A DNA stretch of 64,000 nt from an uncultured Actinomycetes bacterium (GTDB taxonomy: Bacteria > Actinomycetota > UBA4738 > HRBIN12). The stretch covers positions 58,638 through 122,637 of the forward strand of contig CAWGTU010000002.1 in the NCBI GenBank assembly GCA_963825635.1, in the 5' to 3' direction. The notes under the pieces are model-generated. The model worked only from the letters and a program-made list of their open reading frames with translations. It ran no database searches and was not told the origin of the DNA. This document shows positions 13,973 through 38,060 of this stretch, piece after piece. Made by a program: the position numbers and the translations under genes. The number at the start of each line of letters is the position of its first letter. The stretch's first letter is position 1.

Positions 13973-14236
13973 TCAGATGCCCGCGGGCCGTCGCTCGACC
14001 TGCATCTTCTCCCCGCAGTGGCGGGGAACCTGCATCTCACCGAGCCGCGACACCTTGAGCTCGGTGCCGCACTCCCCGCACACGAAGTACACCTCGAGCG
14101 CCTCGACGTCCTCGGCCTCGGCGGGCGCCGGCACCTCGTCGGGATCGGGTGAGAATACGCGCAGCGACGCGATGCCGATGCGCCAGATCAGCGCACCGAC
14201 CAGGATCGCGGTCACCACGAGCAACCAGTCCGGCAT
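13973..14236 (-). CDS. small membrane-anchored zinc-ribbon protein, hypothetical
   Basis: 87 aa with an N-terminal TM helix (LLVVTAILVGALIWRIGI) and a C-terminal CGECG...HCGEK ribbon-like motif. Confidence 0.4.
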   Translation of the reverse strand: MPDWLLVVTAILVGALIWRIGIASLRVFSPDPDEVPAPAEAEDVEALEVYFVCGECGTELKVSRLGEMQVPRHCGEKMQVERRPAGI

Positions 14237-14282
14237 CCACCCACGCTAGCACCCGGGTCGACCGTCCCAGCCGCGCTCGGAG

Positions 14283-16664: not shown

Positions 16665-18473
16665 CTATGGCGCCCGAACGCCGGGAACGTATCGCTCGAG
16701 GAAGCTCAGGATCGCCCGCATCTGGCGGATCTCCTCGTCGATGTCGTTCGAGCCATGGCCCGTGCCGAACAGCACGACCTCGTGCGGGTGGTCGCGCTCA
16801 CGGAGCTTGTCGACGAACGCCATCGCCTGGCGCAGGGGACACCGCGAGTCGTTCTCACCGATCAGGAAGATCATCGGCGCCCGCACGTCGTCGGCGAAGT
16901 GGATCGGGTTGCGGTCGCGCATCAGCTCGGGCACCTGGTCGGGCGTCCCGCCGAGCAGTGCCCGGTCGTACGCCTGCAACTCGGGCGAGAGGTCCTCGTA
17001 GCTGAGCTCGTAGTCACCGACGGGGATGCCGGCCACGCCCGCCAGCCACATGTCGGGGTGCTTGCAGAGTTCCATCACCGTGATGTAACCGCCCCAGGAC
17101 CAGCCGCCGACGACCGCACGAGCGGGGTCGCCGATGCCGCGCGCGACGAGATCGGCCAGCCCGGCGTTCACGTCGACGAGCTCAGGGCCACCGACGTCGC
17201 CGATCAGGCGGTCGCGCCACGCACGCCCGTACCCGGTGGACCCTCGGTAGTTCACCATGGCAACCGCGAACCCCATGTCGACGTAGGCCTGGACCTCGGG
17301 ATCCCACGCATCGGTGTCCTGGCCCGTCGGTCCGCCGTGCACGAACATCATCACCGGGAACGGACCGTCGCCTGTTGGCGTGACGTAGAAGCCGTGCACC
17401 CGATCGCCCTCGCCGTTGTCGAAGTGCCACGAGTGGAACGGGCGGCCGGCCGGCGCGCGATCACCGTCGGCGCGCACCACGTCGGCGCCGGCGGTATCGA
17501 GCGTGACCGGCGGGTGCTCCCCGCTCGAGAGCCGGAACCACACGTCGCCGTCGGGTCGCACGCGCGCCGCGCCGATCGTGCCGCGATCGTGCTCGATCGG
17601 GGTCAGCGAGCCCGCCGCGAGCTCGTATCGGTAGAGGCGGTCACGGCCCTCGTCGTTGTGCACGACGAGGAGCGAGGCGGCGTCGGGCCACCAGTCCACG
17701 GCTTCCACCGGGCCGACGAGGCCGAGATCGAGGTCGGTCCACTCGCCGCTCGCGAGGTCCCAGATCGCGGGACGCTCCTCGCCCTCGCGCTCATGGGTCA
17801 CGACGAGCCGTCGGTCGCCCGGCCGCGGGGACCAGCACGACGCGAACAGCGCCATGCCCTCGTCGATCTGCTCGGCGACCGTCGCCCCGGTCCGAGGATC
17901 GACGACCCGGAGCGCCGGGTGCAGGCTGTCGCCGTGCTCGGCGTGCTCGAGCGCGAGCAGCGATCCGTCGGCCGAGAGTCCCCCCAGCTCCCCACGCCCG
18001 AGCTCCGAGCCCCCGATGCCGATGTGCTCGGTGCTGCGCCAGATCTCCTTCGCCGGCTCGCCGTCTGCCGAGACGTACACCGCGAAGCCGTCGGCGTCGC
18101 TGATGGCGGCAGCCACGAGGCCCGGCATCTGTGCGAGGCCCTGGTTCCAGCCGGTCGGCACCCCGGTGAGGTACGGCTGCGCGTCGCCACCGGAGAACGG
18201 CTCGGAGTACCACTGCCCGGCCTCGCTTCCGGTCTCGTCCTGCCAGAAGAGCACGCGCTCACCGTCGGGGGTGAGCTCACCCGCGGTCACCCCGACCGGA
18301 TGGTCGGTCACCCGTCGTCGCAGACCGGTGGCTCGGTCCCAGACGTGCACCTGATAGACGCCGCTCTCCGTGCTCCAGAAGACGAGGCGCTCTGGGGCCG
18401 ATCGCGCCCAGCGGGGCAGGGACACGACCGGCGCGCGGAACCGACGTTCCCAGGCAGGAAGGTGATCGCTCAT
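16665..18473 (-). CDS. S9 family peptidase (prolyl oligopeptidase / acylaminoacyl peptidase-like)
   Basis: N-terminal beta-propeller region plus a C-terminal alpha/beta hydrolase with GGWSWGG (GxSxGG nucleophile elbow). ATG 18473 overlaps the upstream stop (ATGA). The 1231-aa track ORF is an artefactual extension. Confidence 0.8.
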   Translation of the reverse strand: MSDHLPAWERRFRAPVVSLPRWARSAPERLVFWSTESGVYQVHVWDRATGLRRRVTDHPVGVTAGELTPDGERVLFWQDETGSEAGQWYSEPFSGGDAQPYLTGVPTGWNQGLAQMPGLVAAAISDADGFAVYVSADGEPAKEIWRSTEHIGIGGSELGRGELGGLSADGSLLALEHAEHGDSLHPALRVVDPRTGATVAEQIDEGMALFASCWSPRPGDRRLVVTHEREGEERPAIWDLASGEWTDLDLGLVGPVEAVDWWPDAASLLVVHNDEGRDRLYRYELAAGSLTPIEHDRGTIGAARVRPDGDVWFRLSSGEHPPVTLDTAGADVVRADGDRAPAGRPFHSWHFDNGEGDRVHGFYVTPTGDGPFPVMMFVHGGPTGQDTDAWDPEVQAYVDMGFAVAMVNYRGSTGYGRAWRDRLIGDVGGPELVDVNAGLADLVARGIGDPARAVVGGWSWGGYITVMELCKHPDMWLAGVAGIPVGDYELSYEDLSPELQAYDRALLGGTPDQVPELMRDRNPIHFADDVRAPMIFLIGENDSRCPLRQAMAFVDKLRERDHPHEVVLFGTGHGSNDIDEEIRQMRAILSFLERYVPGVRAP

Positions 18474-26900: not shown

Positions 26901-26977
26901 CTGTCGGGACACGCGGGGTCTCCTCTTCGTGCGGTCGGCTCGCCCGGGCATCGTATGCCGCGCGCGGCGCATGGCGG

Positions 26978-27050
26978 TGGAGACGACCGGGATCGAACCG
27001 GCGACCTCCGGCTTGCAAAGCCGGCGCTCTTCCAACTGAGCTACGTCCCC
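26978..27050 (-). tRNA. tRNA-Ala (anticodon TGC)
   Basis: GGGGACGTAGCTCAGTTGGAAGAGCGCCGGCTTTGCAAGCCGGAGGTCGCCGGTTCGATCCCGGTCGTCTCCA. The cloverleaf folds, the anticodon is TGC, and the G3:U70 identity pair is present. Confidence 0.9.
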
Positions 27051-27113
27051 TCGTCGCGCTCCGAGTCTATCGAGGCACCCACACCCCGGCGCGGATGTGG
27101 AACCATCCCCTGG

Positions 27114-27851
27114 ATGGCGACACCGAACGAGGAGCGATCGCGCGACCCGGTCGACCTGCTCGAGGAGCAGATCGAGTACTACCGGGCGCGCGCCCCCGAA
27201 TACGAGGAGTGGCTCCGTCGACACGGGCGCTACAGCCGGGGTCCGGAGGCCAACGCCCGGTGGTTCGCCGAGTTCGACGAGACGCGCGATCGTCTCCGCG
27301 ACTTCGACGCGCGAGGGGACGTGCTCGAGATCGCCTGCGGGACTGGCCAGACGACCTCGATCCTCGTGGAGACGGCCACCCGGCTCACCGCGCTCGACGC
27401 CGCTCCGGAGATGATCGACGAGGCTCGGCGACGACCGGAGCTCGGGAACGTCACGTTCGTGCAGAAGGATGTCTTCGAGTGGGAGCCTCCACGATCGTTC
27501 GACTCGATCGTCTTCACCTTCTGGCTCTCGCACGTGCCCGCTGAGCGGTTCGAGTTCTTCTGGTGCCTCGTCGGAGAGGCGCTCGCACCGAACGGCCGCG
27601 TCTTCTTCAGCGACAACCTGTACGCGCCATGGGCAACCGCGATCGACCACGAGCTTGAGGAGCCGAGCGCCGGGTCGGTGACCCGGCGCCTCAACGACGG
27701 CAGGGAATTCCGGATCGTGAAGCGCTTCTTCGAGCCGGCCGGGCTCCAGACGGAACTCCGGCGGATCGGATGGAACATCGACGTTCGGGCAACGGGAGAG
27801 CTCCTGCTGACTGGCTCAGGCCGACCCGACACGGCCGACGGAGGTGCATGA
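27114..27851 (+). CDS. class I SAM-dependent methyltransferase
   Basis: VLEIACGTGQ is SAM-binding motif I. About 245 aa. Confidence 0.75.
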   Translation: MATPNEERSRDPVDLLEEQIEYYRARAPEYEEWLRRHGRYSRGPEANARWFAEFDETRDRLRDFDARGDVLEIACGTGQTTSILVETATRLTALDAAPEMIDEARRRPELGNVTFVQKDVFEWEPPRSFDSIVFTFWLSHVPAERFEFFWCLVGEALAPNGRVFFSDNLYAPWATAIDHELEEPSAGSVTRRLNDGREFRIVKRFFEPAGLQTELRRIGWNIDVRATGELLLTGSGRPDTADGGA

Positions 27852-28503
27852 GACGGTGACGGCGTTCACGGGGTGGCCGGTGGAGGCGCTCGAGTTCTAC
27901 GAGGGGCTCGAGGCCGACAACTCGAAGACGTACTGGCAGGCGAACCGTTCCGTCTACGACGGATGCGTGCGCGCCCCGATGGAGGCGCTGCTCGCCGAGC
28001 TCGAAGCAGAGTTCGGCCCCGGGAAGGTCTTCCGGCCGTACCGAGACGTGCGCTTCAGCCGCGACAAGTCGCCCTACAAGACACATATCGGGGCGACGAT
28101 CGGCGATGGGTACGTGCAACTCGATGCCGGCCGGCTGGCCGTGGGCGCGGGGATGTGGGAGATGGCGCCGGATCAGCTCGAGCGATACCGGGCCGGCGTC
28201 GACGACGCACGAAGCGGGCCCGAGCTCGTGACGCTCGTCGAGGGGGCCCGCGCCGACGGCATCTCCGTGATGGGGCGCGATGAGCTGAAGACGGCGCCTC
28301 GCGGTTTCCCGAAAGACCACCCGCGCATCGAGCTCCTGCGCTACAAGGGGCTGGTGACCTGGCGCGAGTGGCCGGCTGGACCGTGGCTGGGCACGAGGCG
28401 CGCCGAGCAACGCGTGGTCGAGTTCCTCCGGGCCTCGCGACCGATCGTCACCTGGCTCTCGGCCACCGTGGGTCCGTCGACGCTGCCGCCTCGCCGCGCC
28501 TGA
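27844..28503 (+). CDS. DUF2461/TIGR02453 family conserved hypothetical protein
   Basis: TAFTGWPVEALEFYEGLEADNSKTYWQANRSVY matches the DUF2461 N-terminus. The start overlaps the methyltransferase stop. Confidence 0.6.
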   Translation: MHETVTAFTGWPVEALEFYEGLEADNSKTYWQANRSVYDGCVRAPMEALLAELEAEFGPGKVFRPYRDVRFSRDKSPYKTHIGATIGDGYVQLDAGRLAVGAGMWEMAPDQLERYRAGVDDARSGPELVTLVEGARADGISVMGRDELKTAPRGFPKDHPRIELLRYKGLVTWREWPAGPWLGTRRAEQRVVEFLRASRPIVTWLSATVGPSTLPPRRA

Positions 28504-28531
28504 CCGATCGCTCCTGCGACCGGTTCCGAGC

Positions 28532-30385
28532 TCAACCCTCGAGCGGGAACACCCCGAGGAGCCGCTCGGCGCCCTCAGCGTAGGTGACGACCTCGGCGTG
28601 CAGGGCCACGCACGACGCGGAGACGGTCGGCCCGATGTCGCGCATCCAGCCCTCGAGCTCGTGCCACCGGGCCGTCCCGCGATCGACCGGGTATGCGAGC
28701 GAGAGATGCGGGATCCATCCATCGAGCGCGATCCGGTCGCTCTCCGCGGTCGGCAGCCCCGCGTCGACGGATGCGGAGCGCAGGTCCGATATCGCCGGGA
28801 GGATCGCCGACCCATCGAGTCGGACGATCGGAGTGTCGGCTTGGCGGAGGATCTCGAGCGCGGTCGAGCGCAGCTCGAGCCCGCCCTGCGACGCCGCCCA
28901 TGCCTGGACGACCTCGACGATCCGCCGCTCGTCCTCACCGGTGAGGGGCGAGTCCCGCGTTCCGAACGCCTTCAGGGTGGCGTGTCCTGCCGGGGCGGCG
29001 CATCGCACCCCGATGCGATCGAGCGTCTCCCCCTGCCAACCGGAGAACGCCTTCGCCAGGGCTCCGACCGGCCGCACGATCACGTATGCGGTACCCAGCG
29101 CCTCGCGGAACTTCCACTCGTCGACGAGGATCGGGGACTCGGACGGAGCCAGGCGATCCTCGACGTCGAGCCACTGCACGAGGCCCTCGTGGTTCAGTCC
29201 GATCTCGACACGTGCATCGCCGCCGGCGGTGGTGAAGGTCCCTCGCAACGGCGTCTCCGCCTCGATCGACTCCACCGCCAGGCCCCCAGAGCGCGCCACG
29301 AGGCGACCTGCCTGAGCGGCGCGCCGTTCATAGGACTCGTCGGTCGCCACGTTGTCGGCGAACAGCGCGCCGGCCTCTGCGTCGCGCCACGACGACAGGA
29401 GCGCCGCGGCTCTCGTCGCACCCTCTGCGAGCGACGCGGTCTCCACCGCGCGTCGCGGTCCCAGCTCGTTGCGATCCGCGAGCATCTCGAGCGCCTCGAT
29501 GCAGGCGCCGTGCATGTCGCCGTACGTGACGTTCGAGAGTCCGATCACGCCGACGTCGTGCTCCGGCAGCCAACGCATGTGCGAGCCGTACCCCGGCAGC
29601 CCCCCGCTGTGGCCGACGGATGTGCCGAGCCGTTCGTCGATACGCACGCCCAGGCCGATGCCGTAGCCGGTCGCGCTCACCCGCGACGATCCGCCCGGCG
29701 AGGGGCGGTACCGGGTCACCTCGTCCACCCGGCGGAGCTGCTGCATCTCTCGGCGCGCCCATCGGGGAAGCGGGCCGTCGTCGGGCTCGTCGCGCGGAGG
29801 CCACGCGTCGAGGAAGAATCCGACCCAGCGCGCCAGGTCTCGCACGGTCGTCCACAGGCCGCCCATCGGGGCGATCGTGCCGTCGCCCAGGGGCTCCCCC
29901 TCGTGCACCCACGCTCCGTCCTGCAGGCGGTAGGGCTCCGCCACGACGGCGGAGCCGGGTCGCACCCACGTCGTCGACGTCATGCCGAGCGGTTCGAGCA
30001 GTGATCGGACGACGAGGTCCTGCACGCGCTCCCCGGCGACGCGCTCGATCACACGGCCGACCAGACCCCAGCCGAGGTTCGAGTACTCGAACCTCGTGCC
30101 CGGGGTCCAGGCGAAGGCCACCCCCGCGTCGATCAGCGCGTCCATCGACCCCGGCGAGAGATCCAGGTGCCGGTCCGCCCATGCGTCGTCGGTCGGGAGG
30201 CCGGCTTCCATCGACACGAGGTGCCGCACGGTGATCGGCGGACCGTCGGACGTCGGGCCTCGCCAGGCCGAGAGCTCGGGGACGTGCACGGACACCGGGT
30301 CGTCCAGCCGGAGCCGGCCGTCGGCCACGAGCATCATCAGCGCGGCTCCCGTGAAGCTCTTGGTCATCGACGCGATGCGGAACAC
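28532..30385 (-). CDS. serine hydrolase (beta-lactamase/PBP4-like family) fused to a C-terminal 2H phosphoesterase (LigT-like) domain; N-terminus frameshifted
   Basis: SMTKSFT (SxxK), YSNLGW (YxN) and HSGG motifs are followed by a C-terminal roughly 190 aa with two H-x-T/S-x motifs (HATLKAFG, HLSLAY). The true N-terminal roughly 70 aa (…ALAEVFARWMRRERIPGVAWGLV…SLSLDEPGDA) lies in another frame at 30386–30608. Confidence 0.6.
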   Translation of the reverse strand: MFRIASMTKSFTGAALMMLVADGRLRLDDPVSVHVPELSAWRGPTSDGPPITVRHLVSMEAGLPTDDAWADRHLDLSPGSMDALIDAGVAFAWTPGTRFEYSNLGWGLVGRVIERVAGERVQDLVVRSLLEPLGMTSTTWVRPGSAVVAEPYRLQDGAWVHEGEPLGDGTIAPMGGLWTTVRDLARWVGFFLDAWPPRDEPDDGPLPRWARREMQQLRRVDEVTRYRPSPGGSSRVSATGYGIGLGVRIDERLGTSVGHSGGLPGYGSHMRWLPEHDVGVIGLSNVTYGDMHGACIEALEMLADRNELGPRRAVETASLAEGATRAAALLSSWRDAEAGALFADNVATDESYERRAAQAGRLVARSGGLAVESIEAETPLRGTFTTAGGDARVEIGLNHEGLVQWLDVEDRLAPSESPILVDEWKFREALGTAYVIVRPVGALAKAFSGWQGETLDRIGVRCAAPAGHATLKAFGTRDSPLTGEDERRIVEVVQAWAASQGGLELRSTALEILRQADTPIVRLDGSAILPAISDLRSASVDAGLPTAESDRIALDGWIPHLSLAYPVDRGTARWHELEGWMRDIGPTVSASCVALHAEVVTYAEGAERLLGVFPLEG

Positions 30386-30606
30386 GCTGTCGGCGTCGGG
30401 CGTCGCCGGGCTCGTCGAGGCTCAGCGAGCCGACGCCGCCGGAGTCCACCAGCTCCCCGCCTCGCACGAGTCCCCACGCGACACCGGGGATGCGCTCGCG
30501 CCGCATCCATCGCGCGAACACCTCTGCGAGCGCTCGGTCACCTCGTCGCCATCGGATGCGTAGCCTACGAGGCACCGCGGTGGACGGTCGCTGCCACGAT
30601 GGCGAC

Positions 30607-31254
30607 ATGGAGTTCGACGGGCACATCCTCGGCGCGTCGTTCGCCTCGGGCGATCGGATCGTGGTGGGTCGGTGGCTCCGCTCCCCGCTCGGCTCCTTCG
30701 CCGACGTGATGTGGTGCCGATCCGACGGCCGCCGCGTGCTGCTCGCGCCCGACGAGCGAGTGCGGGACTTCCTTGCCGGCCATTACGCGTTCGACGAGCT
30801 GCGCGTCGAACGGGTCACGGCGGAGCGAACGGGAGACGGCGTGATCGTGGGATCGGCCGGTCCGGTGCGACTGACGGTGCGACCGAGCGGGCCCGGGTGG
30901 GCGTCACTGCTGCTCGCCCTGCGGCCGCGAGGGATCCGCACCGCGAAGGCCTGGATCGACCTCGAGGACCGGGTGCTCCGGCCGCTCGTGCGACCGCTGT
31001 TCGCGGCCGCCGACGTACGAACCTCCGGCGAGACCCTCGCAGGCGCCCGAGAGCGTTACGCGATCCACGACTTCCGTCACGCGGAGGCGACCGCCTCGGT
31101 CGATGGCGTCGATCTCGGTCCTACGGCTCTCTGTGCGCCCGCGGGATTCGGATTCAGCGAGTTCCCGTCGACCGCGGCGCTCGTGCGCGTGACGTCGATC
31201 TTCGAGGGAGATGCGGCTGCGGAGGCCGTCTCAGGCAGACCCCGCGGTGGGTGA
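30607..31254 (+). CDS. hypothetical protein
   Basis: About 215 aa from ATG 30607 (MEFDGHILGASFASGDRIVVGRW...). Codon usage is protein-like. Divergent from the serine hydrolase. Confidence 0.4.
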   Translation: MEFDGHILGASFASGDRIVVGRWLRSPLGSFADVMWCRSDGRRVLLAPDERVRDFLAGHYAFDELRVERVTAERTGDGVIVGSAGPVRLTVRPSGPGWASLLLALRPRGIRTAKAWIDLEDRVLRPLVRPLFAAADVRTSGETLAGARERYAIHDFRHAEATASVDGVDLGPTALCAPAGFGFSEFPSTAALVRVTSIFEGDAAAEAVSGRPRGG

Positions 31255-31878
31255 CGGGCTGTTCGTCGGGGTCGGCGACATGCCGGGCCGCCACTGTTCC
31301 ACGGCCCCGCCGTCGGGAGCTCGGTCGAGGCAGGTTCGCCGGCAGACCTCGCCGGTGAAGCTCGTCATCGCCCACCAGAAGTACGACGTGCGGAACCGCC
31401 CGAACTCGAGGGTCTTGATCGGCACCGCGACCGACATGCCGTCGGACGACTTGCGTCGGACCTTCACGTTGCGCAGGAACAGGTCGCGACGGTCGCGGCG
31501 ATCGCGCCAGAGCGACGCCTGCAGGTCGGATCCCGTGCTTCGGACCACCACGAAGTACTCGGCGTCCTCGCCTCCTTGGGTGTCGAGGAAGACGTAGGCG
31601 TTGCCGCGGTCCCAGATCGACGCGGGCCTCCAATCGGCGAACGTGATCACTGTCACCTCGGTGCGGCCCTGGTGGTCGAGGCGCACCTTGCGCACATCGA
31701 GCAGCCCCCGGGTGTCGTTGGGATCGTCGACGTCGCTGTGGAACGACGGCGCGGCGAGCGCCGCCAGCGCCATCGCCACGATCAGGCCCGCCACGAGGAA
31801 CGGCACGACCGAACGCAGCGGTGATGCGGCCCAGCGGTCGCGGGTTCGGATCACGCGGGCGTCCCCCGGCCCAGCCAT
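31231..31878 (-). CDS. signal-anchored hypothetical protein (last gene of the MauD/MauE-like operon)
   Basis: TM anchor VVPFLVAGLIVAMALAALAA followed by a roughly 170-aa soluble domain. The alternative GTG 31854 start overlaps the upstream stop (GTGA). Confidence 0.5.
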   Translation of the reverse strand: MAGPGDARVIRTRDRWAASPLRSVVPFLVAGLIVAMALAALAAPSFHSDVDDPNDTRGLLDVRKVRLDHQGRTEVTVITFADWRPASIWDRGNAYVFLDTQGGEDAEYFVVVRSTGSDLQASLWRDRRDRRDLFLRNVKVRRKSSDGMSVAVPIKTLEFGRFRTSYFWWAMTSFTGEVCRRTCLDRAPDGGAVEQWRPGMSPTPTNSPSPTAGSA

Positions 31879-32975
31879 CTGATCGCCGTCCACGCGGTGA
31901 AGCCTGCCACGCCGAGACCCACGACGACCAACACCATCGGTAGCAACTCTCCCGAGGTGGGCCATCCCGGCCACGACAGCACCGGCTCGGGAGCGGGACG
32001 GAGCGTGACCACGAGCGCGAGCGCCGCGAGTGCCGCGTTGCGCATCAGCAGGGCACCGGGCTCCACCGCTTCGCGACCGCCGAAACACCCGCACGGCACC
32101 TGCGGACCGAATCGGCGCCATGCGCGCACCGCTTCCGCGGTGAACACGACCAACAGCACGAGTGCCCAGACGCCCGCGGTCCGCGTCCAGCCCGACGCGA
32201 CCATGATCGGGACGAGGGCTTCCGCGGTCGGCACGGCGAGCGTGGCGGCGCTCTCGACACCGTGTGGGAGCCCGTGCTCATCGAGCGTGGCCCGCCATCC
32301 TGGGAGATCGACCGCCTTCGACATCGCCGCCCACGCGAAGGCGATGGCGAGGGCCGCGGTCGCGAGCGAGGCCCACCCGTCGTCGGCCTGCGTCGCCAGC
32401 GCGACCGACACCACGGCGACGACGACGAGCACAACCCCGTTCGCGAGGTTCCGTCGGCCCTCCGGCGACCCGGCCAGGCGATCGACCAACCGTTGGGACT
32501 CCTGCTGGGTGTGCACGCCGGCCGACCTGGCGGCCGAGAGACCCCGAACCAGCCCGAACGGCGCGACGATGAGCGCGCCCACCGCGGGATCACCCGAGGC
32601 GAACGCGGCGAGAGCCACGACCACGAGGGTGCCGTGGGACACGTAGGTGAAGAACCCGATGCCGAGACCGGCGCCGTACAGGGTCGCGGCGATCGGCCAC
32701 GAGAAGAACTCACGCCACCAGTCGGGAACCTGCCGGCGGAGCTGCGGCACCGTTGCCGTCACGCGGGGGAGCTCCCCCAGCGCGTAGACGATCGCCGTGA
32801 TCGCGACGGCCACGGCACCGGCGCGTCCCCAGGGCGCCTCGAGCAGCGCACCAGTGAAGCCCAGCGCGGCGCCGAAGAGCGCGGCGGTCACGGTCGCGCC
32901 CGCAACGTGCAGCGATAGGGCGACGGCCCACCTCGTTCGTCCCCCGTACACGACGGGGGTGATGGTCTCCACCAT
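31851..32975 (-). CDS. MauE/DoxX-like polytopic membrane protein (methylamine utilisation MauE family)
   Basis: 374-aa multi-TM protein whose C-terminal region has the VPCGCFG motif characteristic of the MauE family. Confidence 0.65.
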   Translation of the reverse strand: MVETITPVVYGGRTRWAVALSLHVAGATVTAALFGAALGFTGALLEAPWGRAGAVAVAITAIVYALGELPRVTATVPQLRRQVPDWWREFFSWPIAATLYGAGLGIGFFTYVSHGTLVVVALAAFASGDPAVGALIVAPFGLVRGLSAARSAGVHTQQESQRLVDRLAGSPEGRRNLANGVVLVVVAVVSVALATQADDGWASLATAALAIAFAWAAMSKAVDLPGWRATLDEHGLPHGVESAATLAVPTAEALVPIMVASGWTRTAGVWALVLLVVFTAEAVRAWRRFGPQVPCGCFGGREAVEPGALLMRNAALAALALVVTLRPAPEPVLSWPGWPTSGELLPMVLVVVGLGVAGFTAWTAIRWLGRGTPA

Positions 32976-33082
32976 CGACAGCCCTCAGGGGCCGTAGAGC
33001 GCTGACCACCCGGCGACCGCCGACGCTGTGACGAGCATCAGGAGCAGTGCCATCGCGAGTGCGCCGCCGCCGAACGGATCGG

Positions 33083-33601
33083 TCAACACTTCTTGTTGAG
33101 CTCCCTGTAGGTGATGCAGAAGACCTTCAGCCGCCGCGGGCAGTATCCCCGGACCGCATAGTCCCCGTTGATGCGGATGTTCGAACGGGAGCAGCAGTCC
33201 TGGATGTGGCGCAGCCGACCCGAGCAGCACCGGGTCCATCCGCCTCCGTACCGCGGTGACCCGGTGAAGGGGTACGCCTCGGGCACGACCTGCTCGCACG
33301 TCTTGCGGCGGGTCTGCTTCCGAGGATCGACGTACTTGTCCCCCTCGTCGTCGACCGGGTACCCGTACTGGGGATGCATCGGGTAGCCGTAGCGGTCGGT
33401 GCGGGACAGCGGGGAGTACGGGTGGGGGCAGGAGCCCGTCGTATAGGTGTGCCCGCAGATGTGATAGGCCTGCGCGCGATCGGGCGCGATCGCGGTGGCC
33501 ACCAGGCCCCCGCCGGCGAGCGCCACCACCCCCCGGCCGACACGACCGAGGAAGCTCCGGCGGCTGGTGCGCGTGGCGAGCGATCGCTCCGCCCGTTCCA
33601 T
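33083..33601 (-). CDS. Tat-secreted cysteine-rich small protein (10 Cys), MauA-light-chain-like candidate
   Basis: Twin-arginine signal TSRRSFLGRVGRGVVALAGG…AQA. The roughly 125-aa mature part has 10 Cys including two CC pairs (RCCSG, DCCSRS). It starts 5 nt after the MauD-like stop. Confidence 0.6.
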   Translation of the reverse strand: MERAERSLATRTSRRSFLGRVGRGVVALAGGGLVATAIAPDRAQAYHICGHTYTTGSCPHPYSPLSRTDRYGYPMHPQYGYPVDDEGDKYVDPRKQTRRKTCEQVVPEAYPFTGSPRYGGGWTRCCSGRLRHIQDCCSRSNIRINGDYAVRGYCPRRLKVFCITYRELNKKC

Positions 33602-33606
33602 CGAGG

Positions 33607-34116
33607 TCAGCTTGCCCACTGTGCGCGATCCTCCGTGATCCGTCGGTTGGCGGTGTCCACGAGCCCCTCGACCTGTTCGAGGTTGTTCACGGTCCCCTTG
33701 GCGCGCACGACTCCCCGTTCGTCGAGCACGACGACGAACGGGGTGCCGGGAACCGCGAGCGCTCGCTCGGCTTCGGTGTCGTGCACGACGATCGGCTCCA
33801 GCCGTCCGGCGGCGGCGGCGGCCGGCACCCCCGGCGCGACCTCGAGGCAGACGGCGCACGTCTCCGAGGCGAACAGCACGAGGCGAGGCCGGCCCGCGCC
33901 GCCGAGCACGACCGCCCCCCCGTCGGCGTCGTGAGCCGAGAGCGGGGGCAGCGGCTCGCCGAGCGCCGGGCCCTCGTCGTCGATCTCGAGGGCGCCGCGC
34001 GGACCGAGCCGCAGATGCAGGGTGCCGACCTGCCGGGCGAGCGCGACCACCACGATGCTGAGCACGACCACGAGCAGCCACAGCACGACGAACGCCAGCG
34101 CCCACCACCCGGTCAT
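33607..34116 (-). CDS. TlpA/MauD-like thioredoxin-fold thiol-disulfide oxidoreductase, membrane-anchored
   Basis: N-terminal TM anchor and ETCAVC (CxxC) active site in a redoxin fold of about 169 aa. Confidence 0.7.
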   Translation of the reverse strand: MTGWWALAFVVLWLLVVVLSIVVVALARQVGTLHLRLGPRGALEIDDEGPALGEPLPPLSAHDADGGAVVLGGAGRPRLVLFASETCAVCLEVAPGVPAAAAAGRLEPIVVHDTEAERALAVPGTPFVVVLDERGVVRAKGTVNNLEQVEGLVDTANRRITEDRAQWAS

Positions 34117-34176
34117 CCGGCCGGTCCCCCGGCGGGTCCTCCGGCCATCACCGTTCGGCCGGCGCTTCCCACGGCC

Positions 34177-34737
34177 TCAGCGCATCGTCCAGGTCGGCTG
34201 CTTCGTCTCATCGAGGAACTGTACGAACGGTGAGCCGTCGCCGGCCAGTCCGACGATCGCCCGAAGCTCGCCCGCCCGGTCGAGCAGACGGAGCACCGGT
34301 GAGCCTTCGGCGGCCAGACCGAGACGAACCCGCACCTTGCCCGCGTGGTCGTAGAGACCGAGCGTCGGGGACCCCTGCTCCGCGAGGGCGTAGACCTGGG
34401 AGAGCTCGCCATCGGCCACCTGCATCCCCATCGTGGGTGACGCCTCGGGTGCGAGACCGAACTTCGCCCGGATGCGCCCGTTCTTGTCGCCGAACGCCAG
34501 GCTCGCGCTGCCGTCGCTCGACAGGCCGACCGTCGCACGCACCTTTCCGTTCTCGTCGCCCACCGCGAGCCCGGCGGCACCGTCGGCGGAGAGGCCGAAC
34601 CGCATGCGCACCTGCCCGTCGGGCGACAGCAGCGAGAAGAACGGGTCCTCGTCGTTCGAGAGCCCGATGCGCACCCTGACCCGCCCGTCGTCGTCGACGA
34701 CCTCGAACTCGCCCGCCTGCACGACTCGCTTCTTCAT
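34177..34737 (-). CDS. tandem-repeat protein (7 x ~23 aa, consensus xGxVRxRxGLxxDGSxxLxxxDx), hypothetical
   Basis: Direct inspection shows seven consecutive 23-residue repeats (DGQVRMRFGLSADGAAGLAVGDE, NGKVRATVGLSSDGSASLAFGDK, ...). No signal peptide. First gene of the operon. Confidence 0.55.
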   Translation of the reverse strand: MKKRVVQAGEFEVVDDDGRVRVRIGLSNDEDPFFSLLSPDGQVRMRFGLSADGAAGLAVGDENGKVRATVGLSSDGSASLAFGDKNGRIRAKFGLAPEASPTMGMQVADGELSQVYALAEQGSPTLGLYDHAGKVRVRLGLAAEGSPVLRLLDRAGELRAIVGLAGDGSPFVQFLDETKQPTWTMR

Positions 34738-34975
34738 GTCACTCCAGACCCGCTCGAGGTCGGGGAGGCGACGACCCGGCGGAGTGCCGGGTCCGCGGTG
34801 TGAGGCGGGCGCATCTGCGTATGGTCGCCCCTGCGAGCCCTCGGCTCAAGCACGTGCAGACACGCGAACAGACCCGGGAAGTGAGAAACCGCCGGAACCC
34901 GGGGGCCCCAGCGGTCTCTCATGGTGGACGTTACGGCCGGTGTGGGTGTCCCGTCAAACTCGGGCCGGGTTCTTG

Positions 34976-36088
34976 TCACACTTTCCCGAGAGACTCCCGG
35001 CGCAGCGTCGTCTCGGCCAGGCGATCGGGGCGCGGAGCCACCCCGATACCCGTGCCCGTGGGCACCGCCATCGTGCCGTCAGGAGCCATCACGAACGGCG
35101 CGGTGAGGTCATCGAGGAAGTACCGAGCGCTCGCACTCGTGTCGCCGGGCAGCGTGAACCCCTGCATCGCCGCGAGCGCGAGGTTCTGCGCCCGACCGAT
35201 GCCCGTCTCGAGCATGCCCCCACACCAGACCGGCACCCCGGCGGCTCGGCACACGTCGTGCACCCGCCGCGCCTCGACGATGCCGCCCACTCGTCCCTGC
35301 TTGATGTTCACGATGCGACAGCTGCCCAGCTCGAGCGCCGCGACCGCGTCGGCGGCGGATCTGATCGACTCGTCGAGGCACAGGTCCGTGCGGACCAGGC
35401 GCTGCAGCTCGGCGTGGCGCACGAGGTCTGCGTGATGCAGCGGCTGCTCGATCATCAGCAGGTCGTAGGCATCCAGCGCCCGGAACACATCAAGATCCTC
35501 GATCGTGTACGCCGCGTTGGCATCCACGCTGAGAGCGATGTCGGGATGCGCGGCCCGCACCGCGCCCACGCGCTCGGCGTCGATGCCTGGCTCGATCTTG
35601 AGCTTGATGCGCCGGTAGCCCTCCGCGAGGTAGCCCTCGACCTGCTCGAGCAGCGCCTCGGTGGTGTCGGTGATGCCGATCGACACCCCGCAGGCCACCC
35701 GGTCGCGATCGGCGCCGAGCCACTGAGCCATGGAGACTCCGTCCGCCCGGAGACGGGCGTCGACGACGGCGTCGATCAACGCGGCCTTGGCCATCGGGTT
35801 CCCACGGACGTGCCCGAGGAGGCGGTCGAGATCGTCGATCGCGACGTGATCGGCTCGCAGGAGCGCGGGCGCCAGGTGATCGCGGATCACGAGCCACGCG
35901 CCTTCGTTGAACTCCTCGCTGTAGCCGGGCTCGACGTCGGCGACGCACTCCCCCCACCCTTCCGCCTCGTCGGTCTCGACACGGACGATGATGCACTCCT
36001 TCGCGGTCGACGTCCCGAAGCTCGTGCGGAACGGTCGCACCAGTGGCAACCCGATCAACCGTAGCTCGACGTTGCGCACGACGCTCAT
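34976..36088 (-). CDS. enolase-superfamily enzyme, o-succinylbenzoate synthase / N-acylamino-acid racemase-like
   Basis: Has the KxK (RIKLKI) motif plus the metal-ligand D/E/D positions (SVDANAAY, MIEQP, CLDES) of the MLE/OSBS subgroup. Confidence 0.75.
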   Translation of the reverse strand: MSVVRNVELRLIGLPLVRPFRTSFGTSTAKECIIVRVETDEAEGWGECVADVEPGYSEEFNEGAWLVIRDHLAPALLRADHVAIDDLDRLLGHVRGNPMAKAALIDAVVDARLRADGVSMAQWLGADRDRVACGVSIGITDTTEALLEQVEGYLAEGYRRIKLKIEPGIDAERVGAVRAAHPDIALSVDANAAYTIEDLDVFRALDAYDLLMIEQPLHHADLVRHAELQRLVRTDLCLDESIRSAADAVAALELGSCRIVNIKQGRVGGIVEARRVHDVCRAAGVPVWCGGMLETGIGRAQNLALAAMQGFTLPGDTSASARYFLDDLTAPFVMAPDGTMAVPTGTGIGVAPRPDRLAETTLRRESLGKV

Positions 36089-36897
36089 GGTGTCGGCTCC
36101 GACGCGAGCAGATAGGTCGGGCGCCCGCCCTGGCGGTCGGGCTCGAAGGCCACGACGGCGAGCCCGACGGCCATGCAGGCGTCGAGCGTCGCGGCGGCGG
36201 CCTCACGCCATGCCGAGCCGAGCGAGGGGTCGGCGGCGCGCACCTCCGCGTGGTCGCGAGGGATCTGTGCGGCGACCACCTCACCCTGGCGCGGGTCGCC
36301 CACGACCTCGGGGACGGGAGCGTCGACCGAGCCGGTGCTGCGCAGGATCATCCGTGCACCGTCGGGGATCGGCGGGGCGGCGGGGATCGCATCGAGCGTC
36401 CACCGGACCACGAGCCGATCGCTGCGGTCGCCCGTGTTGATCGAGTCGGGCATCTGTCCGTAGTAGTCCCGATGGAACCGGTCGCACGTGGCGCCCAGCT
36501 TGTTCACGTTCAGGTGCGCGTTGCGTGCGACGAGCGGGTCGAACGTCCAGCGCACGAGGTGGATGCCGCGGTCGAGGCACGAGGCGCGCTGTGCGAGCTT
36601 GAGCGCGTACCCGACGCCGGCATGCCGCCGATCGGGGAGGGCGGCGAGCATGTGCGAGTGCTCGTGGAGCCCGTCGTCGGGCGAGATGGCGGCCCAGCCG
36701 AGCACGTAGCCGACCAACTCGTCGCCGTCGTGCGCCCCCCACGGCACGTTGCCGGAACCCGCGAGTGCCTTCACCGTCTCTCTGGGGATCGCTTCGCCCC
36801 ACGTCGCCATCATGACGCGCAGGATCGCATCCGCGTCGTCGAGGGAGGTGAGGGGGCGCAGGTGCACGCCGGCCGCCGACGCCGCGTCGTTCGCCAT
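36085..36897 (-). CDS. GNAT-like acetyltransferase family protein
   Basis: ATG 36897 (MANDAASAAGVHLRPL...). The central region has acyl-CoA N-acyltransferase features. Its stop overlaps the menC-like start (ATGA). Confidence 0.5.
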   Translation of the reverse strand: MANDAASAAGVHLRPLTSLDDADAILRVMMATWGEAIPRETVKALAGSGNVPWGAHDGDELVGYVLGWAAISPDDGLHEHSHMLAALPDRRHAGVGYALKLAQRASCLDRGIHLVRWTFDPLVARNAHLNVNKLGATCDRFHRDYYGQMPDSINTGDRSDRLVVRWTLDAIPAAPPIPDGARMILRSTGSVDAPVPEVVGDPRQGEVVAAQIPRDHAEVRAADPSLGSAWREAAAATLDACMAVGLAVVAFEPDRQGGRPTYLLASEPTP

Positions 36898-37049
36898 AGC
36901 CCACGCGGATCCCTCCACGCGCCGGAGTCTATCGACGGCTCCCCTTCGGGCAGTCGCCCTCCAGACGGACGGTTCGACGAAGGCGGAAGGCCCGCCGCGT
37001 GGCGGGCCTTCCGTCGAACGAACCGCCGGCACGGCCGGCGGTGGCTCGG

Positions 37050-37241
37050 TCAGCCGCCGGCGGGCGGCGGCAGCTCCTGCCACTCGACGTCATCGAGATC
37101 GTCGCCGCGGCGACGTTTCACGAATGCCACGACCGCCGCGACGATCGCGCCGATCACGGCGATCTTCATGAGCTTCTTCAAGAATCCGCCCTTCTTCTTC
37201 TCCTCGACGGCCTCGACCGTCACGGTGGCTTCATCTGTCAT
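37050..37241 (-). CDS. small membrane protein, hypothetical
   Basis: 63 aa with a KKKGGFLKKLMKIAVIGAIVAAVVAFV TM helix and an acidic C-terminus. Lies just downstream of tRNA-Ile. Confidence 0.4.
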   Translation of the reverse strand: MTDEATVTVEAVEEKKKGGFLKKLMKIAVIGAIVAAVVAFVKRRRGDDLDDVEWQELPPPAGG

Positions 37242-37264
37242 GGGAGGAGCCCTCCTTCCGGGAG

Positions 37265-37339
37265 TGGGCCTGGATGGACTTGAACCATCGACCTCTTCCT
37301 TATCAGGGAAGCGCTCTAACCGGGCTGAGCTACAGGCCC
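37265..37339 (-). tRNA. tRNA-Ile (anticodon GAT)
   Basis: GGGCCTGTAGCTCAGCCCGGTTAGAGCGCTTCCCTGATAAGGAAGAGGTCGATGGTTCAAGTCCATCCAGGCCCA. Complete cloverleaf with anticodon loop CTGATAA. Confidence 0.9.
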
Positions 37340-37418
37340 CAACTCAAACGGGGCCGCTCGCCCTCAGGGCAGCGTAGCCACGGCCAGAAACGCGTGTCAA
37401 ACGAACGTTCGACGGCCC

Positions 37419-38060
37419 TCAGCGACGGGGACGCTCAGCGAGGGTGACCTCGACCCCGCCGATGATGTCGCTGATCAGGTTGTAGAGCATCGCGATGAAG
37501 ACGTTGATCACCGACCACACCGCGACGAAGACCAGCCCGCCGAAGAGCCCCCACATGAAGAGCGACCCCCCGTCGATGTCGATCGGTTCGGCGCCCCCCG
37601 TCGATGTCGTGCCCGTGCCGAAGACGTAGCCGAGCACCGTCTCGAGCGAGTCGATCGCCCCCGCGGCCGCGAGGACCCCGTACACGATCACCATCGCGAA
37701 CAGCACGATCAGCATCAGGCACAGGTAGAACAGCAGCGAGAACTTGAGCACCGACAGAGGCCCCACCTTGCGCACCACCACCCGGGTGCGGCGCGGCGCC
37801 GATCGCACGCGTGGCGGGCGTGAGGGCTGCGCCGCACGAGCGGAGCGCGGCGTCTTCGGGCCGGCGACGAACGACCCCTCGGCTCCGGAGGACGGGGTCG
37901 GCGTCGTCGGCGCGGGTGATGGCGTCGGGGACGTAGCCGGCGCCGGAGCGTCGATCGCGGTCGCGACCACGTGCGGCTGCGGCACGGGCACGCCCGCGTC
38001 GGGCCCGCGCTGCTGCTGACGCGGTTCGGCGGTCTCCGGTTGCTCGGCCGTGTGCACCAT
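37419..38060 (-). CDS. DUF3566 transmembrane protein (Rv0007-like)
   Basis: Pro/Ala-rich disordered N-terminus followed by VRKVGPLSVLKFSLLFYLCLMLIVLF…YNLISDIIGGVEVTLAERPRR, matching the conserved Rv0007-family core. Confidence 0.7.
   Translation of the reverse strand: MVHTAEQPETAEPRQQQRGPDAGVPVPQPHVVATAIDAPAPATSPTPSPAPTTPTPSSGAEGSFVAGPKTPRSARAAQPSRPPRVRSAPRRTRVVVRKVGPLSVLKFSLLFYLCLMLIVLFAMVIVYGVLAAAGAIDSLETVLGYVFGTGTTSTGGAEPIDIDGGSLFMWGLFGGLVFVAVWSVINVFIAMLYNLISDIIGGVEVTLAERPRR

Follow-up and report, generated by a model that had tools for sequence, protein, structure and literature searches.

In Mycobacterium the origin-proximal gene order is dnaA-dnaN-recF-gyrB-gyrA-DUF3566(Rv0007)-ileT-alaT. 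In the stretch of 64,000 nucleotides analysed here (the window), which comes from an uncultured soil actinobacterium, the tRNA-Ile and tRNA-Ala genes are separated by a gap of 10,213 bp with 12 genes inside, raising the question of whether this block is an inserted island, as an earlier sequence-only reading had proposed, or was assembled in some other way. Comparison of the locus with its counterparts in relatives indicates that the 10.2 kb are very probably a lineage-specific neighbourhood, produced by stepwise insertions of ordinary genes and then mostly inherited vertically.

Layout and ancestral state of the tRNA-Ile–tRNA-Ala locus

The tRNA-Ile (GAT) gene (37264..37339, minus strand) forms the origin-proximal boundary of the block and the tRNA-Ala (TGC) gene (26976..27050, minus strand) its distal boundary. 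Both were called in agreement by ARAGORN and Rfam RF00005 (74 and 71 bits, respectively, against a gathering score of 29), and gene calls made from the GC3 frame plot together with Pfam and NCBIfam searches gave the same set of 12 genes, so that the layout given in the sequence-only reading, with two minus-strand tRNAs approximately 10 kb apart around these genes, was confirmed. The origin region of the window reads parB-parA-rsmG-jag-yidC-yidD ... dnaA-dnaN-recF-gyrB-gyrA, followed by an Rv0007-like DUF3566 gene (37419-38060; PF12089, 72 bits), tRNA-Ile(GAT) and later tRNA-Ala(TGC), with gyrA, DUF3566 and the two tRNAs on one common strand. The crgA gene included in the sequence-only description of this arrangement was not identified next to tRNA-Ala; beyond this tRNA lie BaxI_1, M15 and M23 peptidases, GSDH and a Mo-cofactor oxidoreductase. 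Nor is the block the least housekeeping-like part of the window, as had been claimed, since the 26 kb to its left are as accessory as the block itself. A promoter-like site (TTGACA-N18-TACGCT) upstream of tRNA-Ile is kept in clade relatives and a TAGACT -10-like hexamer is present by tRNA-Ala (27064-27069); once separated, tRNA-Ala appears to have a -10-like element of its own.

The gyrA-DUF3566-ileT-alaT order was verified in Nitriliruptoria, Egibacteraceae and Promicromonospora loci, and the Ile-Ala spacer measured 143-218 bp in seven outgroup Actinomycetota loci (L019, L020, L021, L026, L032, L064 and L072), supporting the expectation that ileT/alaT adjacency is ancestral. Because adjacency is the ancestral state, the block represents inserted material relative to other Actinomycetota. 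The Nitriliruptoria/Egibacteraceae outgroup spacers contain a 37-39 aa DLW-39-type ORF and nothing else, and in five of the seven outgroup spacers (L019, L020, L021, L026 and L032) a 37-39 aa ORF is homologous to a gene of the window that encodes a small membrane protein of 63 aa (37050..37241, minus strand). NF038356 is the top NCBIfam match both of this DLW-39-like protein and of three among five homologues that were tested from other loci, but at 15.9-17.4 bits the scores lie below the cut-off of 24 bits. The gene immediately follows tRNA-Ile in almost every clade locus, L016 being one exception, and is, judged from these comparisons, the ancestral occupant of the Ile-Ala spacer.

Composition, mobility functions and tRNA-derived repeats

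A foreign element integrated at the tRNA-Ile 3' end (or at tRNA-Ala), with later loss of its integrase, would be in keeping with the two tRNA genes that bound the block and with its accessory-type contents, and L016 demonstrates that tRNA-Ile has served as an attachment site in this lineage. In that locus, which acted as a positive control, 28 nt of the tRNA-Ile 3' end recur without mismatch 2.6 kb downstream and GC falls by ~5 points. In the window, no exact tRNA-derived repeat of >=16 nt was detected for either tRNA and 23-24 nt of either tRNA 3' end had no second match at <=3 mismatches, and the direct repeats that had been suggested as a check on an island are thus not present in the block. 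A deviation in composition, another suggested check, was not observed either. GC was 0.70-0.73 over most of the block, with 0.68 in the kilobase adjoining tRNA-Ala, and the 4-mer distance z score ranged from -0.7 to +0.1 relative to the window, both measures lying at the window average; the only compositional outlier in the window was the yidC-parB core origin region. No integrase, transposase or other site-specific recombinase was matched by Pfam, NCBIfam or PHROGs among the 12 products, as had been noted from the sequence. PADLOC returned a generic SAM-methyltransferase domain match only and no defence-specific family, and PHROGs returned generic methyltransferase and beta-lactamase-fold domain matches only, with nothing phage-specific. 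On one border, the conserved small DLW-39-like gene stands between the block and the tRNA-Ile 3' end, which excludes integration at the tRNA 3' end; the other border adjoins tRNA-Ala on its 5' side. The occurrence of this small gene behind tRNA-Ile across nearly all clade loci and five outgroup loci, the native composition and nested contents that co-diverge with the flanks in relatives, as described below, all argue against a tRNA-targeted island, which is a very improbable explanation for this locus.

Nested gene contents in relatives

A GNAT-like gene (36085..36897, minus strand), with a TAGACT -10-like motif beside it (36926-36931), is present in every clade locus but L016. Its product has no Pfam or NCBIfam match and shows weak similarity only: searched against PDB, a profile built from 15 orthologues matched GNAT acetyltransferases only, at E 0.04-0.17. 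The stop of this gene overlaps the start of a gene for an enolase-superfamily enzyme of the OSBS/NSAR subgroup (34976..36088, minus strand; Pfam MR_MLE_C/N), which scores 308.2 bits against TIGR01928 (cut-off 200.65) and has orthologues at the same position in relatives (56-100% identical). The GNAT-like partner and the absence of men genes from the window only hint at NSAR rather than OSBS as its predicted activity. A protein of 186 aa with about eight repeats of about 22 aa and no family match (34177..34737, minus strand) is 55-100% identical across the clade (tblastn). Its gene is the last called before tRNA-Ala in L013, L015 and L044, with one extra 123-aa ORF intervening in L014, and is the third ancestral member of the block.

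The spacers of relatives contain nested subsets of these genes. That of L023 (2.1 kb) holds the GNAT-like and enolase genes, and the repeat protein is added in L013, L014, L015 and L044 (2.9-3.5 kb). Spacers reach 6.2 kb in L003 and L011, with some clade loci adding DUF3352/M19 and others a MauD-like/Cys-rich/MauE/hypB module. In L166, L082 and L083, the same two tRNAs enclose spacers of 8.1, 8.8 and 9.5 kb, respectively, in which 9-10 of the 12 genes follow one another as in the window. The available portion of gyrA is 86% (L166), 95% (L082) and 92% (L083) identical to that of the window, and the left-flank genes for BaxI, M15, M23, two GSDH proteins and the MoCo enzyme are common to all three and the window. 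Block proteins of these relatives are 60-98% identical to those of the window, with flank proteins in the same range, and the similarity ranking L082 > L083 > L166 is broadly alike for block and flank proteins. Relatives thus share most of the genes between the two tRNAs, and the composition of the block is core-like, a combination that the sequence-only reading had itself taken as speaking for ancestry rather than insertion. Its proposal of an island survives insofar as the block is inserted with respect to other Actinomycetota, but given this synteny it is no usual island, and the fallback of an old block, or one acquired by another route, is the part that is borne out; more distant relatives have nested subsets. 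Since the phylogeny comes from one gene, as a neighbour-joining tree of GyrA, the order of events is provisional. As the relatives compared are all MAGs or metagenome contigs, with frameshifts in several, some gene absences could be assembly problems.

The Mau-like module

The module begins with a MauD-like membrane-anchored thioredoxin-fold protein (33607..34116, minus strand; TIGR02661, E 1.5e-22, 80 bits against an equivalog cut-off of 188.6). It continues on the same strand with a Cys-rich twin-arginine-signal protein of 178 aa (33083..33619), a MauE-domain polytopic membrane protein of 374 aa (31851..32975; PF07291 at the C-terminus, 77.7 bits against a cut-off of 27) and hypB (31231..31893), whose 220-aa product has an apparent N-terminal hydrophobic segment, judged by eye, and no Pfam/NCBIfam family match. 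hypB always follows the MauE gene and accompanies the module in L001, L005, L006, L012, L018, L041, L048, L082, L083 and L166. The Cys-rich protein belongs to a family without a functional name and has 10 invariant Cys residues and an invariant Trp122. It returned 643 homologues, and among the 120 listed none carried a Pfam domain, all being unnamed or described just as hypothetical or TAT-signal protein; at 50% identity the family collapses into what is essentially a single cluster among 1.84 billion representatives. No match was obtained against PDB sequences, and an AF2 model with core pLDDT mostly 73-93 gave only weak fold matches. No homologue of the TTQ-bearing MauA light chain (PF02975) was found, and there was no family match to the MauB heavy chain (beta-propeller) or amicyanin among the 12 products.

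Three sub-clades carry the module and at least three are missing it, with the MauD-like gene patchily present in relatives; this patchiness requires either a single gain with at least three losses or several gains at one and the same position. Identity to the window in L012 and L005, respectively, is 80% and 70% for the Cys-rich protein, 71% and 68% for MauD and 79% and 85% for gyrA. The Cys-rich protein is closer to L012/L018 than to the gyrA-closer L005/L006, a mild discordance. Overall, module similarity is not anomalous relative to gyrA, which argues against recent transfer of the module.

The variable end facing tRNA-Ala

Convergent with hypB is hypA (30580..31254, plus strand), a fast-evolving gene of about 224 aa with no Pfam/NCBIfam family match, found in L001-L004, L081-L083 and L086 and missing from L166. 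A serine hydrolase (beta-lactamase family)/2H phosphoesterase-like fusion assigned by Pfam (28532..30553, minus strand), homologues of which at 53-61% identity sit at other chromosomal loci through either relocation or paralogy, has a disrupted 5' end with two 1-nt insertions relative to L001. Its intact ORF spans 28532-30385, the Pfam match begins at profile position 49 and full-length homologues measure 672-680 aa; the disruption represents either a pseudogene or an assembly error. Frameshifts in this one gene and the metagenome-derived source could be taken as signs of a chimeric contig in which assembly or binning had put unrelated DNA between the tRNAs. With the same junctions present in independent assemblies from different projects (L001, L081/L087, L086 and L088, from JGI and ENA) and also in L082 (NCBI GCA_054335875.1), L083 and L166, such an artefact is scarcely credible.

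Nearest to tRNA-Ala, a SAM-dependent methyltransferase (MTase) gene (27114..27851, plus strand; Pfam Methyltransf_25/12/23/11) overlaps by 8 nt the start of a gene for a DUF2461/TIGR02453 protein (27844..28503, plus strand; Pfam and NCBIfam). The pair occurs at this locus only in contigs with a 92-97% identical DUF2461 (L081 (= L087), L086 and L088) and is missing at this position in L082, L083 and L166, L083 having a DUF6036 gene in its place and L082 no gene at all. DUF2461 homologues of <=73% identity are found in other contexts, never near tRNA-Ala or any block gene. Presence among close relatives is sporadic for the pair and partly so for the Mau-like module, and not for the remainder; MTase and DUF2461 (27114-28503) are, judging by this distribution, the sole part of the block to behave like a recent insertion.

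Alternatively, the part beyond the ancestral triad, comprising the Mau-like module, hypA, the hydrolase and MTase/DUF2461, might be swapped repeatedly between related strains through homologous recombination in the conserved flanks, and would then be recent in the population and old in the lineage. Beyond the repeat protein, gene content varies greatly: of the unlabelled genes in the loci of 21 relatives, ~50 lacked a counterpart in any other locus examined, among them genes for a sulfatase, an aldehyde dehydrogenase, a TreT-type glycosyltransferase, an ECF sigma factor and a TetR regulator. The precise presence or absence of the Mau-like module beside the repeat gene, the replacement of MTase and DUF2461 in L083 and L082 and the absence of BaxI after tRNA-Ala in L003 are consistent with such swapping. 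However, between sub-clades the module proteins have diverged as far as the flanking genes and show no trace of recent exchange, and gene order is constant over 8-9.5 kb in L082, L083 and L166, making a swap hot spot a possible but rather unlikely account.

Proposed history of the interval

If the block arose by stepwise insertion and mostly vertical inheritance, as preferred here, the nested gene contents in relatives suggest an order of accretion. The starting spacer would have been about 0.15-0.2 kb, consisting of tRNA-Ile, the small DLW-39-type gene and tRNA-Ala. The GNAT-like and OSBS/NSAR enolase genes would be the oldest inserted pair, followed by the repeat protein and then by a lineage-variable addition of DUF3352, M19 dipeptidase or the MauD-like/Cys-rich/MauE/hypB module. 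hypA and the serine-hydrolase/2H fusion would have come fourth, with MTase and DUF2461 the latest arrivals, present only at about species level. Gain and loss would have occurred on the side facing the tRNA-Ala 5' end, not at a tRNA 3' end, with no mobile-element machinery involved, and the route would likely have been illegitimate recombination or recombination via the conserved flanks.

A broader joint reading, which we consider distinctly doubtful, combines an element-independent accretion site with a new kind of TAT-exported protein from the Mau-like module. Lying a few kb from oriC, the interval that runs from the DLW-39-like gene to tRNA-Ala may have been filled stepwise and repeatedly remodelled across an uncultured soil Actinomycetota lineage. 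The exported protein of the module would carry disulfides or a cofactor and would be matured by dedicated MauD/MauE homologues without a dehydrogenase large subunit; with its invariant Trp beside paired Cys, it may have very distant similarity to TTQ light chains.

Comparison with known systems

In the Geobacillus operon for D-to-L amino-acid conversion, an NSAR/OSBS gene is paired with a GNAT acyltransferase gene. The window shares an enolase that passes TIGR01928 and whose gene overlaps at its start with the end of a GNAT-like gene, but differs in that GNAT membership is only weakly supported, enzyme activity is predicted only and none of the block genes was seen to encode an M20 desuccinylase.

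The Mau-like module shares the MauE domain with the mau methylamine dehydrogenase cluster, from which it differs by lacking MauA and MauB. Clusters of MauE/MauD plus a Cys-rich precursor have been noted in Streptomyces by decRiPPter (PMC7794033). The window likewise has MauD-like, MauE-domain and 10-Cys TAT-signal proteins encoded side by side and, as in the Streptomyces cases, without other mau genes. However, RiPP precursors are typically far smaller than 178 aa, the size of the Cys-rich protein. Of all the genes in the block, those of this highly conserved, wholly uncharacterised four-gene module would best repay experimental study.

Compared with the conserved actinobacterial origin arrangement, the window has its tRNAs 10.2 kb rather than 0.14-0.22 kb apart, an M23 peptidase and a 99-aa membrane protein between gyrA and DUF3566, and no crgA/ppiA/pknB block after tRNA-Ala. 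It clearly exemplifies gradual change, the gyrA–DUF3566–ileT–alaT order, among the most conserved in actinobacteria, having been parted by nested additions that widened a gap of 0.15 kb to 10 kb. As with tRNA-associated islands and integrative elements, accessory genes lie beside tRNA genes, and the relative L016 provides a bona fide example, and thus a contrast case, of tRNA-targeted integration at the same tRNA-Ile. The block in the window differs from such islands in having no integrase or tRNA-end repeat, in not abutting a tRNA 3' end, and in its native composition and nested content conserved in relatives. For island prediction this calls for caution: two tRNAs around accessory-looking genes do not make an island, and here the genes are native, old and common to relatives.

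Integrase-independent insertion hot spots ('plasticity zones') occur between core genes of bacterial chromosomes. The interval in the window resembles these in its fixed anchors and in holding differing ordinary metabolic and regulatory genes without mobility functions, but a large part of it is old and stably inherited, the variable end lying only by tRNA-Ala.

Gene order around the two tRNA genes

Exactly two tRNA genes, both minus-strand, were found by ARAGORN in the whole window: tRNA-Ala(TGC) at 26976-27050 and tRNA-Ile(GAT) at 37264-37339. They score 71 and 74 bits respectively with the Rfam tRNA model and lie 10,213 bp apart, in agreement with the separation of about 10 kb given in the sequence-only reading. 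As the window has a GC content of about 70%, genes were called from codon-position GC, requiring GC1 > GC2, and annotated with Pfam and NCBIfam, the limits of the BaxI and M15 genes being taken from Pfam and the gene calls of relatives. On the minus strand, in the direction leading out from the origin, gyrB and gyrA are followed by genes for an M23 peptidase (plus strand), a 99-aa membrane protein and a DUF3566 (Rv0007-like) protein, and then by tRNA-Ile. The block between the tRNA genes begins with genes for a 63-aa membrane protein, a GNAT-like protein and an enolase of the OSBS/NSAR type, whose TIGR01928 score of 308 bits exceeds the cut-off. Next are encoded, in order, a 186-aa repeat protein, a MauD-like protein, a Cys-rich protein of 178 aa that bears a TAT signal, a membrane protein with a MauE domain, the hypothetical proteins hypB and hypA (plus), a beta-lactamase-family/2H hydrolase fusion, a DUF2461 protein (plus) and a SAM methyltransferase (plus); together these are the same 12 genes as listed from the sequence alone. 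Family searches identified no integrase or transposase among their products, again as previously noted. Past tRNA-Ala lie genes for BaxI_1, M15 and M23 peptidases, two GSDH proteins and a Mo-cofactor oxidoreductase. A crgA gene had been placed beside tRNA-Ala but none was identified there; a candidate 90-aa ORF at 13973-14245 gave no Pfam match. Since yidD, yidC, jag, rsmG, parA and parB, together with dnaA-dnaN-recF, occupy the right-hand part of the window, the tRNA locus adjoins the origin, as had been proposed.

Ancestral spacing and stepwise growth of the spacer

When 185,579 species genomes were scanned with GyrA as anchor, 80 loci were recovered, the nearest of which derive from uncultured Actinomycetes/Actinomycetota MAGs. 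GyrA identity to the window was 99% for locus L001, 74-92% for about 20 loci and 63-65% for a clade including L017, L023 and L039; the nearest named groups were Nitriliruptoria, Egibacteraceae and Euzebya (56-60%) and Promicromonospora (53%). Seven outgroup loci have tRNA-Ile/tRNA-Ala spacers of 143-218 bp (L019, 143 bp; L020, 163 bp; L021, 151 bp; L026, 186 bp; L032, 218 bp; and L064 and L072, both Promicromonospora, 166 bp each), bearing out the view that adjacent tRNAs are the ancestral state. The short spacer of all five Nitriliruptoria/Egibacteraceae loci holds an ORF of 37-39 aa, e.g. MRIGKIALFAALAGVVSAILKKQRDRELDEAIWEEPRDL, sharing with the 63-aa protein of the window (…AVVAFVKRRRGDDLDDVEWQELPPPAGG) a hydrophobic helix, a stretch of basic residues and an acidic-Trp tail. 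Of five homologues tested from other loci, three had the NCBIfam DLW-39 model as best match, as did the window protein, with scores of 15.9-17.4 bits, under the cut-off of 24. In four of these five loci 0-30 nt separate the stop codon of the outgroup ORF from tRNA-Ala, suggesting co-transcription of the two genes there, and because the ORF ends so close to tRNA-Ala the ancestral order is tRNA-Ile, small gene, tRNA-Ala.

Spacers were compared by tblastn of window proteins against all loci, tRNA scans and gene maps. In the lineage of the window, all extra DNA is bounded by the small gene and, at the other end, by the 5' side of tRNA-Ala. The 2.1 kb spacer of L023 contains the small, GNAT-like and enolase genes, to which the repeat gene is added in L013, L014, L015 and L044 (2.9-3.5 kb; L014 also has one 123-aa ORF). 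In L003 and L011 (6.2 kb) a DUF3352 gene is present between the enolase and repeat genes, with the repeat gene followed by hypA and a sulfatase gene in L003 and by an M19 dipeptidase gene in L011; the dipeptidase gene also precedes tRNA-Ala in L010. The DUF3352 gene (about 540-590 aa, e.g. L011:12305-14077) occupies this position only in L002, L003, L007, L010 and L011. Close relatives L166, L082 and L083, with spacers of 8.1, 8.8 and 9.5 kb and an available gyrA portion 86%, 95% and 92% identical to that of the window, carry the small, GNAT-like, enolase and repeat genes, the four-gene Mau-like module (MauD-like, Cys-rich, MauE and hypB), in some cases hypA, and the hydrolase fusion. Most block genes are present in these relatives in the same order between the same two tRNAs, and the genes past tRNA-Ala (BaxI, M15, M23, two GSDH and the Mo-cofactor enzyme) also follow the window order. 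The window (10.2 kb) has the L082-type content plus the DUF2461 and methyltransferase genes, and partial contigs L081 (equal to L087), L086 and L088, whose DUF2461 proteins are 92-97% identical, have window-type content including both of these genes. In L039 the insertion point differs from that in the remaining clade, approximately 4.4 kb with three genes (L039:4320-8775) lying between tRNA-Ile and the DLW-39-like gene.

The block end at tRNA-Ala is a variable zone. At the site of the methyltransferase and DUF2461 genes L082 has 30 bp, L083 a DUF6036 gene and L166 about 90 bp. About 75 homologues with no more than 73% identity came from a metagenome scan with DUF2461, and none is near tRNA-Ala, the methyltransferase gene or any block gene. 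As these distant homologues sit elsewhere and the three relatives differ at this site, 27,114-28,503, comprising the two genes, is the sole stretch of the block that looks to have been inserted recently. The variable genes in the spacers of relatives are of ordinary chromosomal types, among them those for DUF3352, M19 dipeptidase, sulfatase, phosphoesterase, aldehyde dehydrogenase, a TreT-type glycosyltransferase, an ECF sigma factor and a TetR regulator. Homologous sulfatase genes lie directly before tRNA-Ala in L003 (19394-20719) and directly after it in L013 (16396-17745), and BaxI is absent past tRNA-Ala in L003, indicating that the far side of tRNA-Ala is variable too.

Inheritance of the block genes

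Proteins of the block diverge in step with those of the flanks. Identities to the window for L082 and L166 respectively were 83% and 76% for the GNAT-like protein, 90% and 81% for the enolase, 98% and 96% for the repeat protein, 90% and 84% for MauD-like, 94% and 89% for Cys-rich, 82% and 73% for MauE, 82% and 67% for hypB and 72% and 65% for the hydrolase fusion; flank values were 95% and 86% for partial gyrA, 94% and 91% for BaxI, 88% and 83% for M15 and 85% and 75% for GSDH. Proteins of 672-700 aa related to the hydrolase fusion form a large family in this lineage, in which homologues 63-95% identical lie inside the Ile-Ala spacer (L081, L082, L083, L166 and L167) and more distant ones (53-61%) at other loci (L084, L085 and L168), a distribution suggesting that the presence of the fusion may be due to relocation or paralogy and not to a foreign source. 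The window copy has lost approximately its first 55 codons to two 1-nt insertions relative to L001 (30385-30553, minus strand), the full-length homologues compared being 672-680 aa; either the copy is a pseudogene or the insertions are assembly errors.

Carriers of the Mau-like module fall into three groups: the window, L001, L048, L082, L083 and L166 (group 1); L005, L006 and L041 (group 2); and L012 and L018 (group 3). In all of them the module is at the same site, with divergence equal to that of neighbouring genes. It is absent from L002, L003, L004 and L008, from L007, from L010 and L011, and from L013, L014, L015 and L044. Gain and loss were weighed by divergence levels, the carriers forming three groups without an outgroup; on a GyrA NJ tree, a single early gain followed by some three losses fits the distribution, as do old exchanges inside the lineage.

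Composition and integration signatures

Compositional deviation and direct repeats of the tRNA 3' ends had been proposed as checks on island status, and neither was found. GC is 0.70-0.73 over most of the block, 0.68 in the kb adjoining tRNA-Ala and 0.65-0.73 in the flanks, and tetranucleotide distances of 5-kb windows within the block are at or below the window mean (z -0.7 to +0.1). The sole tetranucleotide outlier in the window, at 48-55 kb (z up to 3.7), comprises the core origin genes yidD, yidC, jag/KhpB, rsmG, parA and parB, and is not foreign DNA. Repeat, mismatch and exact k-mer searches of the window detected no repeats derived from either tRNA. PADLOC matched only a generic SAM-methyltransferase domain in the block, and PHROGs only generic methyltransferase and beta-lactamase-fold domains. 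Integration at the tRNA-Ile 3' end is excluded because the added DNA lies entirely between the small gene and tRNA-Ala, leaving the small gene between it and tRNA-Ile.

Exact k-mer scans of all other loci found tRNA-derived att repeats only in L016, which has a genuine tRNA-targeted integrative element at tRNA-Ile. Past this tRNA, GC is 0.63-0.66 over 7 kb or more (L016:14714-22073), down from about 0.70, and 28 nt that exactly repeat the tRNA-Ile 3' end are present 2.6 kb downstream at 17392-17419. ORFs in this region are mostly unknown, with one GT2 match in Pfam and no integrase within the available 7 kb; no DLW-39-like, GNAT-like or enolase gene falls inside the available sequence. L016 serves as a positive control for a tRNA-targeted element in this lineage, and the window displays none of its features.

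The 11-mer TCGATAGACTC occurs exactly twice in the 64 kb window, both on the minus strand, before tRNA-Ala (27063-27073) and before the GNAT-like gene (36925-36935). As a target-site duplication flanking the block it was rejected: it includes a TAGACT -10-like hexamer, six relatives keep variants of it upstream of the GNAT-like gene, and the sequence directly 5' of tRNA-Ala varies between lineages. It is read as a probable shared -10 context. Most loci have a -10-like hexamer (TAGACT, TACGCT, TAGAAT, TATGAT or TATCAT) within about 20 nt of the mature tRNA-Ala 5' end, and a TTGACA-N18-TACGCT promoter-like site upstream of tRNA-Ile (37345-37385, minus strand) is conserved in clade relatives. Material would have been gained and lost directly upstream of tRNA-Ala, which may have acquired its own promoter after separation from tRNA-Ile; the hexamers are consistent with this.

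The island interpretation holds in that the block is inserted relative to a deep actinobacterial ancestor, but it is in all likelihood an old, compositionally native and mostly vertically inherited neighbourhood assembled stepwise. The sequence-only reading had itself allowed that relatives with the same genes and core-like composition would point to an ancestral arrangement, and this is what L082, L083 and L166 and the native composition indicate. Growth of this block is an ordinary kind of genome evolution.

The Mau-like module

The uncharacterised Mau-like module merits separate attention. Its MauD-like protein matched TIGR02661 (E 1.5e-22) under the equivalog cut-off, and the MauE domain lies in a 374-aa membrane protein. 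Encoded between them, the 178-aa Cys-rich protein has a twin-arginine signal, 10 invariant cysteines and the motifs HxCGH, CPHP and an invariant GGGW(T/S)RCC. It has 643 homologues, of which the 120 listed include none with a Pfam domain or functional name, and among 1.84 billion representatives essentially a single full-length cluster accounts for the family at 50% identity. No PDB match was obtained by sequence or profile, Foldseek searches with the AF2 model (confident for residues 60-172 only) returned weak fold matches at most, and comparison with a MauA sequence by hhalign gave 0.7% probability. Membership of the MauA family is therefore unsupported, and any kinship would be very remote. 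In three proteins of the representative library (P0281, P0251 and P0365) the Cys-rich domain is joined to a thioredoxin- or glutaredoxin-like region or to a MauE region. They may be genuine fusions or ORFs merged by frameshifts; if real, they support a functional link among the module genes.

By analogy, the MauD/MauE homologues most likely constitute a dedicated membrane thiol-redox pair that would mature an exported disulfide-rich protein. In Streptomyces, MauE/MauD homologues occur beside precursors with eight or more Cys and without other mau genes, at loci noted as candidate RiPP-like clusters (PMC7794033).
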